A stretch of 14,656 nt of DNA from a virus (lineage: Duplodnaviria; Heunggongvirae; Uroviricota; Caudoviricetes): the IMG/VR virus record IMGVR_UViG_2713896903_000001, one strand, 5' to 3'. This document shows, in pieces, positions 667-5,912 of the stretch (its first letter is position 1; each line of letters opens with the position of its first letter). The notes under the pieces were generated by a model. It saw nothing but the letters and a program-made list of their open reading frames with translations. It was not told where the DNA came from and did not search any database. Made by a program: the position numbers and the translations under genes.

Positions 667-981
667 ATGCTACATGATCACCTGGCTGAATGTCTGGAGA
701 AAAAAGGACTGTACCGGCGAGCGGCTGAACGATGGGCAAAAGTGATGGTACAGCTAAGTGATGATCAGAAAAGAAAAATCGCGGCACAGAAACGAGCAGA
801 GTGTTTGCGTAAGGCGCGCCGGACTTCGGTTGCACCGGTGAATCTGACAGAAATAAAGCAAGCGGTCAACAGACTACATTCTGAGTTGGGAATGGGATTT
901 GAAGAGCGGCGGATATTCCGACGATATAAAGGGACAGGAGAACAGAATACGTCCGGAAACGCGCGGTCAAAAAAATGCTAA
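667..981 (+). CDS. Putative PerC/Pch-family transcriptional regulator (104 aa), prophage accessory (moron) gene
   Basis: ORF-track ORF of 104 aa; GGAGG Shine-Dalgarno at 656..660, 6 nt before the ATG; N-terminal motif LEKKGLYRRAAERW resembles the PerC-family signature as I remember it; basic, small, sits in an AT-rich island between the lysis cassette and cos; followed by a hairpin terminator. Family assignment is from memory, not a search. Confidence 0.5.
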   Translation: MLHDHLAECLEKKGLYRRAAERWAKVMVQLSDDQKRKIAAQKRAECLRKARRTSVAPVNLTEIKQAVNRLHSELGMGFEERRIFRRYKGTGEQNTSGNARSKKC

Positions 982-1044: not shown

Positions 1045-1495
1045 GTGTCATATATACGTCGTTTAAGTAAACCTGTCTGAACAGGTGCTCTGGTCGTGTT
1101 TGTTTTTGTTGGGTACAAATTGAGAATGTTTTTCATTAATTAGTCTTCTTCAGCAGACTTCAATAATCCACGCTGAAAAAATTCCTGAACCTTTCTGACC
1201 AAAAGCGATGTTAATTTGTTCAATCATCTGGTTTGGAAATCGGATGTTGAGGGCTGTTGTTCTGCGGGTTCTGTTCTTTGATGACATAATGTTGCCCCAT
1301 ATTCAGTGTTGCTGGTTTGTATTTTCTGAAGTTGCTTTTACGTTAATTTGATGTGGATCAATTGATGCAATGCCTGCGTCATAATTGATCATTTCTTGTG
1401 GTTAGATTGCGTACACACACGTTCTGATGAGTCATCATGCAGATGATAACTATTCTCATTTTTTGTGGGTCCTTTCCGGCGATCTGACAGGCTAC

Positions 1496-1507
1496 GGGGC
1501 GGAAGGC
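1496..1507. other. cosN-like cohesive-end site (variant 12-mer GGGCGGAAGGCG)
   Basis: Flanks (..GGGTCCTTTCCGGCGATCTGACAGGCTACG | 12-mer | CGCGGATTTTCGCTATTTATGAAAATTTTCCGG..) match the lambda right-end/left-end junction as remembered; the 12-mer left half GGGCGG matches lambda GGGCGGCGACCT but the right half differs at 5 positions. It lies about 190 bp upstream of nu1, as in lambda. Confidence 0.6.
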
Positions 1508-1685: not shown

Positions 1686-2205
1686 ATGGAAGTCAACAAA
1701 AAGCAGCTGGCTGACATTTTCGGTGCGAGTATCCGTACCATTCAGAACTGGCAGGAGCAGGGAATGCCCGTTCTGCGAGGCGGTGGCAAGGGTAATGAGG
1801 TGCTTTATGACTCTGCCGCCGTCATAAAATGGTATGCCGAAAGGGATGCTGAAATTGAGAACGAAAAGCTGCGCCGGGAGGTTGAAGAACTGCGGCAGGC
1901 CAGCGAGACAGATCTCCTGCCAGGGACTATTGAGTACGAACGCCATCGACTTACGCGTGCGCAGGCCGATGCACAGGAGCTGAAAAATGCCAGAGACTCC
2001 GCTGAAGTGGTGGAAACCGCATTCTGTACTTTCGTGCTGTCGCGGATCGCAGGTGAAATTGCCAGTATTCTCGACGGGATCCCCCTGTCGGTGCAGCGGC
2101 GTTTTCCGGAACTGGAAAACCGACATGTTGATTTCCTGAAACGGGATATCATCAAAGCCATGAACAAAGCAGCCGCACTGGATGAACTGATACCGGGGTT
2201 GCTGA

Positions 2206-2231
<26 letters not shown>
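1686..2231 (+). CDS. nu1: Terminase small subunit gpNu1
   Basis: 181-aa ORF starting MEVNKKQLADIFGASIRTIQNWQEQGMPVLRGGGKGNEV, matching lambda gpNu1 as remembered (N-terminal winged-HTH DNA-binding region); immediately downstream of cosB; 3' end overlaps the start of A. Confidence 0.96.

Positions 2232-5912
<3,681 letters not shown>

Follow-up and report, generated by a model that had tools for sequence, protein, structure and literature searches.

A right-half cosN allele in a lambda-type prophage, very probably a natural variant with predicted function

The two halves of the lambda-type nicking site cosN differ markedly in how much change they tolerate, and natural variation of the right half as such has already been described. 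As summarised in PMC4669245, many mutations of bp 7-12 had a minimal phenotype but their symmetric counterparts in the left half were strongly deleterious, with G2C lowering the yield about tenfold and C11G being without effect (Xu & Feiss 1991). According to the same summary, this functional asymmetry depends on how close cosB is to the right half (Hang, Catalano & Feiss 2001), and R3-bound TerS places TerL for the nick in the bottom strand (Higgins & Becker 1994); bp 7-12 tolerate change because TerL is anchored in this way (PMC4669245). The two base pairs that flank each nick are highly conserved, and the conclusion drawn was that selection acts on cosQ, the left half and the flanking CG but not on bp 7-12 (PMC4669245).

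Several natural variants fit this picture. Relative to lambda cosN, positions 9 and 12 are changed in phiD326 and N15, and positions 8, 9 and 11 in Gifsy-1 (PMC4669245); in all three the left half and the flanks are conserved. N15 further has a simplified cosB and a TerL that is only 65% identical to that of lambda, and lambda TerL gave equal yields on the lambda and the N15 cosN alleles (PMC4669245; PLoS One 2015, Feiss and colleagues). For mEp213 and LLS, the putative cos, which is lambda-like and belongs to a plaque-forming lambdoid phage, carries the natural right-half allele GGGCGGCGCGCT with changes at positions 9 and 10 only (PMC12315714); among the works cited there, Vahanian et al. 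2017 appears as a survey of cosN natural history.

The window analysed here, 14,656 nucleotides in length, corresponds to an entire draft-assembly contig (BBVN01000048.1, GCA_001514745.1). On it are the last part of a lambdoid lysis cassette, a pair of small accessory genes, cos and the lambda-type head and tail genes nu1 to H; the other parts of the prophage, its replication and lysogeny module among them, lie beyond the contig. We conclude that positions 1497-1508 are very likely the cosN of a lambda-type prophage with the natural right-half allele AAGGCG, predicted to be functional and to be cut at the positions given below. As in N15, phiD326 and Gifsy-1, variation is confined to the right half, but it amounts to five changes instead of two or three and involves different bases.

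The cos region of the window

The window was aligned against the circularised lambda junction (NC_001416), and all cos elements named in the following lie on the plus strand. The 7-mer GGGTCCT at 1467-1473, which we take to be cosQ, the packaging-termination element (Wieczorek & Feiss 2001), begins 30 bp ahead of cohesive-end base 1, just as bp 48473-48479 do in lambda. From cosQ through R3 and R2 the alignment runs without gaps, which bears out the base-for-base correspondence with the lambda cos junction described in the initial annotation, with three substitutions in the 23-bp spacer between cosQ and cosN.

The 12-mer GGGCGGAAGGCG occurs once in the window, at 1497-1508 (chance expectation 0.01 matches), with base 1496 being the G equivalent to lambda bp 48502, the final base of the lambda right end. 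The initial annotation had thus read the 12-mer correctly but had placed it one base too far to the left, at 1496-1507. The left half GGGCGG (positions 1-6; 1497-1502), which is the half under sequence constraint, is the same as in lambda, while the right half (positions 7-12; 1503-1508) reads AAGGCG where lambda has CGACCT. Compared with lambda GGGCGGCGACCT, the mismatches fall at positions 7, 8, 9, 10 and 12, with C11 retained, so that all five are indeed in the right half, as had been noted before, and the further change reported just downstream is likewise present, namely A in place of G at position 18 (1514), which turns CGCGGG into CGCGGA and represents a minor sub-allele in the spacer between cosN and R3.

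Both CG dinucleotides adjoining the 12-mer are kept. One (1495-1496) lies 5' of the top-strand nick predicted between 1496 and 1497, the other (1509-1510) 3' of the bottom-strand nick predicted between 1508 and 1509. Twofold symmetry is uninformative: it extends over 10 of 22 bp in the window and in lambda alike, and the 2/11 pair is preserved along with the CG pairs at the flanks. The G+C content of the cohesive end is likewise shared (10/12), and the predicted nearest-neighbour energy of the 12-bp end duplex is -17.8 kcal/mol compared to -18.2 kcal/mol for lambda.

R3, the critical binding site of TerS (Nu1), spans 1546-1561 in the extent defined in PMC9026076 and is the same as lambda bp 50-65 at an equal distance from cosN, its core occupying +53 to +59 in the lambda register. 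The remainder of cosB, comprising the I1 region, R2 and R1, covers 1562-1665 and includes the inverted R2 core GGAAACG (1610-1616) and the R1 core CGTTTCC (1650-1656). The spacer between R2 and R1 (1617-1650) is 1 bp shorter than that of lambda, and Nu1 consequently starts at cos position 190 instead of 191; this is the majority state in relatives with either cosN allele, and also in Perceval, an isolated phage with a canonical cosN, Nu1 starts at bp 190.

Of the features of a lambda-type cos, the site has cosQ in register, both CG dinucleotides 12 bp apart, the left half, R3, R2 and R1 as well as adjacent intact TerS and TerL genes, and its right half is AAGGCG and not CGACCT. The latter sequence is not a defining feature of this type of cos, as N15, phiD326, Gifsy-1 and mEp213 differ there, too.

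Recurrence of the allele and natural cosN variation

When IMG/VR was searched with an exact 21-mer spanning the site, the GGGCGGAAGGCG allele was found in 55 stretches, two of which (L023 and L040) match the window across the entire cos region. In the 57 loci with the variant allele, cosQ is directly preceded by at least 12 unrelated sequences and at least two cosB types follow downstream, which indicates that the DNA to either side was exchanged whereas the 12-mer itself stayed the same; the cosQ heptamer is conserved in 56 of these loci. In one metagenomic viral contig, IMGVR_UViG_3300045988_113976 (56,122 bp), two copies of the variant cos (L027 and L031) with the same upstream sequence are reported on opposite strands, which may reflect either misassembly of an inverted repeat or the presence of the prophage in two copies.

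Among deposited phage genomes with a lambda-type cos, two of 88 carry GGGCGGAAGGCG, namely PhiR46_1 (PV340565.1) and YDC107_1 (CP025712.1). Both have a lambda-type cosB and structural genes with about 96% nucleotide identity to the window, but differ from it in having G at position 18 and another sequence upstream of cosQ. They represent N15-like linear plasmid prophages with telL/telR, a protelomerase, ParAB and a large primase/origin-binding protein, so that the allele is common to integrating lambdoid prophages and to telomere phage-plasmids. PhiR46_1 is deposited as a complete genome with ECOR13 as host and with telL and telR annotated. According to the initial annotation, its proposal would be refuted by the same 12-mer at the cos of demonstrably viable phages; PhiR46_1 nearly amounts to this, its viability being read from the host field and the naming of its record. 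A search of deposited phage genomes and IMG/VR contigs for a record or contig that starts or stops at the variant 12-mer returned none; the nearest IMG/VR contig ends are 33-134 bp away, and the closest records that start at cos, Perceval and 2B8, have the canonical end. In the YDC107_1 record, a mirror-image duplication is centred near 36.7 kb (about 27-46.7 kb), with the protelomerase, BRO, gp31, gp36 and origin-binding genes present on both strands in reverse order, and it looks as if the assembly had read through a hairpin telomere.

To place the allele within Escherichia coli, 5,426 complete genomes were scanned with a 45-nt query, over only 73% of which canonical sites align. A lambda-type cos is present in 4,164 of these genomes, with 7,387 such places altogether and up to 7 sites per genome. 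In 180 genomes there is a place that covers at least 80% of the query, the first 30 listed all matching at 45/45; for the allele this number is an upper bound because sister alleles that end in AGGCG would also pass the 80% line. The GGGCGGAAGGCG allele is hence found in at most about 4% of the E. coli genomes with a lambda-type cos. Across species-representative genomes the exact allele was met in one Escherichia sp. genome only, and there is no evidence among these genomes for its origin in another genus.

GCA_048885725.1, two Logan run assemblies and NZ_CP039404.1, a complete genome, also contain the CGCGGA sub-allele, which is seen at loci L274, L276, L277 and L187. In the cosB comparison it was seen in the variant group only (3 of 20 distinct sequences), and the same flank is joined to the sister allele GGGCGTCAGGCG in two further loci (L305 and L306). 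The closest relative in a complete genome is a full-length lambdoid prophage beside tRNA-Ser/mtfA in E. coli 377323_2f (NZ_CP039404.1, 2900000-2949000). Its cargo consists of type III effector genes (espJ, nleC, an NleG-family gene and a HECT-type E3 ligase), four tRNA genes are located downstream of Q, and its integrase is annotated as frameshifted.

To what extent cosN varies in nature was surveyed in IMG/VR by two scans, one with the left half fixed and one with it free, whose pattern required conservation of cosQ, flanks of TACG and CG, and any base but A at position 9. At least 16 distinct natural 12-mers, lambda included, were found among the matches listed; owing to the constrained pattern, this is a list of alleles in which frequencies are rough. 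Among the 16 alleles in these matches, positions 1-5 are invariant and each of the positions 7-12 varies, which mirrors the functional asymmetry that has been published for cosN. The view that cosN is essentially invariant among phages with a lambda-type cos, on which the initial annotation had relied, is accordingly wrong for the right half. Position 6 is changed in three of the alleles among the matches listed, GGGCGTCAGGCG, which is frequent, and GGGCGACGTCCG and GGGCGACGCGCT, which are rarer, all of them with several different cosB types (L282-L314), and thus not even the supposedly conserved left half is invariant at this position.

Some of these alleles are close to that of the window, and others are as far from lambda. 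Five differences from lambda are also found in GGGCGGGAGCGG, all in the right half, and in GGGCGTCAGGCG, at positions 6, 8, 9, 10 and 12. GGGCGGCAGGCG is one step away from the window allele, from which it differs at position 7, and occurs with a lambda-type cosB, whereas GGGCGTCAGGCG, present in at least 25 loci, is two steps away and differs at positions 6 and 7, one of which is in the left half. The IMG/VR prophages with these two alleles (L264, L297, L305-L307) share the right end AGGCG with the window, some having a lambda-type cosB and some CGCGGA. Finally, PhiR70_1 (PV340577.1) carries GGGCGGAGACCT, in which C7A is the single right-half change and A7 is common with the window allele.

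Terminase genes and the working of the site

Nu1 (TerS; 181 aa, 1686-2231, plus strand) matches Pfam PF07471 (Phage_Nu1) and differs from its lambda counterpart by A75T, Q78L and L132I (178/181 identical, 98.3%). A (TerL; 641 aa, 2206-4131, plus strand) has the Pfam domains GpA_ATPase and GpA_nuclease and differs by N37S, T151S, D185E, P318S, I459V and T466I (635/641 identical, 99.1%). Both genes are intact, so that the near-identity to lambda proposed earlier for the two proteins was correct. From nu1 through H, all 14 genes are open and encode proteins with 91-100% amino acid identity to those of lambda, with W being identical. Within the window there is no sign of a defective prophage, neither decayed genes for packaging or morphogenesis nor missing cos elements: 14 of 14 genes are intact and the constrained cos elements are present. 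A full-length A of 641 aa is also encoded in 28 of the 31 loci with the variant allele for which enough downstream sequence is available; of the remaining three, two have a different cosB and the third is only a partial match.

A comparison of 24 distinct gpA proteins encoded beside the variant cosN with 32 encoded beside the canonical one revealed no position that separates the two groups. None of the six gpA substitutions in the window is specific to the variant cosN, and those in the nuclease part, I459V and T466I, are also present beside a canonical site. Likewise, no Nu1 residue is fixed differently between the groups, five Nu1 proteins being common to both, and the same is true for every base in cos positions 13-189 (cosB). 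It follows that the same terminase is paired in nature with both cosN alleles. A compensating change in the gpA nuclease, Nu1 or cosB, which had been considered as a possibility, is ruled out, as no residue or base co-varies with the cosN allele.

The site should thus work in the manner of lambda. Dimers of Nu1 would bind R3, R2 and R1 with IHF in between, as taken from lambda, and the gpA protomer held by Nu1 at R3 would use distance to place the bottom-strand nick between positions 12 and 13, with little regard to bp 7-12. The conserved left half together with the flanking CG would be read by another gpA protomer, which would nick the top strand before position 1. The packaged ends would then be complementary 5'-GGGCGGAAGGCG overhangs, fully so because both derive from copies of the same duplex in a homogeneous concatemer, and cyclisation should be normal. 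As judged from sequence, the variant 12-mer is almost certainly an ordinary one that is predicted to be cut and gives no sign of a broken phage.

The initial annotation had considered a tolerated variant, a nicking defect in a domesticated prophage and a sequencing or assembly artefact. Our results favour the first of these, since bp 7-12 are tolerant in published genetics (PMC4669245) and the allele is found in many prophages with intact terminase genes. An impaired bottom-strand nick, which would make the prophage packaging-defective or domesticated, might be suspected from the extent of the change, as five of six right-half bases differ while the variants that we found tested in print have one to three changes, and from the minority status of the allele (2/88 phage cos sites and no more than about 4% of cos-bearing E. 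coli genomes). The frameshifted integrase in the closest complete relative points in the same direction, yet the window prophage could on this account be immobile for reasons unrelated to cosN. We consider such a defect very improbable, as its premise is mistaken: the right half is the tolerant half, where TerL anchored via R3 cuts by distance and changes have minimal effect on cutting (PMC4669245), and natural phages differ there, with GGGCGGGAGCGG and GGGCGTCAGGCG being other natural alleles five changes from lambda. In addition, the allele is conserved without change in at least 12 genomic backgrounds in which the terminase genes are intact, it is present in a deposited phage genome for which a propagation host is named (PhiR46_1), and the morphogenetic genes of the window are free of decay. 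Even less credible, to the point of being negligible, is a sequencing or assembly artefact. It could have been invoked given that the window is an entire draft-assembly contig in which the changes are tightly clustered, but the identical sequence with CGCGGA in independent assemblies and one complete genome (GCA_048885725.1, the two Logan run assemblies and NZ_CP039404.1) excludes it, as does the presence of the allele in the 55 IMG/VR stretches and many complete genomes.

One could further speculate that the allele is not merely tolerated but functional and selected, with right-half alleles defining cohesive-end compatibility groups among co-resident lambda-like phages and N15-like phage-plasmids. 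A hybrid chromosome with the variant cos on one side and the canonical cos on the other would be mismatched at 5 of the 12 end bases and would rarely cyclise; single-crossover hybrids would consequently be lost and exchange be limited to double crossovers or to recombination in the prophage state. Positive frequency-dependent selection would then keep a few common and sharply distinct alleles, and heteroduplex ends might on rare occasions cyclise nevertheless and so carry the 12-bp cassette exactly from one background into another, which would explain a patch of five changes with flanks identical to lambda. In favour of this idea, a mismatch of 2/12 already reduces the viable yield about fourfold (PMC4669245), the lambda-type cosB is associated with two major haplotypes five changes apart, and possible intermediates are rare among the matches listed (GGGCGGCAGGCG once and GGGCGGAGACCT once), while neighbouring spacer positions of cosB, by contrast, carry common polymorphisms; moreover, the up to seven lambda-type cos sites per E. 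coli genome fit such a scenario. However, many different right arms are found attached to the allele, and its left arms are those that also accompany the canonical allele, which implies that exchange around cos is frequent, and neutral drift together with recombinational import of a diverged patch explains the same pattern. As the allele frequencies are also rough, being drawn from pattern-constrained scans and the matches listed, we regard selection for compatibility as unlikely, albeit less so than a nicking defect.

Consequences for annotation and accessory genes

With the right half of GGGCGGAAGGCG taken as a natural allele that is predicted to be functional, a lambda-like prophage should not be called packaging-defective on the grounds that it differs from lambda at bp 7-12. 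The DNA of phages with this allele will not anneal to lambda cohesive ends, and cos-mapping oligonucleotides as well as end-prediction tools that are keyed to the lambda 12-mer would miss it. If the idea of compatibility groups were true, the allele would modestly hinder the formation of hybrids among lambdoid phages; beyond annotation, the finding matters little.

The two accessory genes of the window encode a PerC-family transcriptional regulator (667-981, plus strand) and a DUF3950 protein (1150-1287, minus strand) and sit between the lysis genes and cos, which is the usual position of a 'moron'. Regulators of the PerC/Pch type control the LEE virulence genes in EPEC/EHEC.
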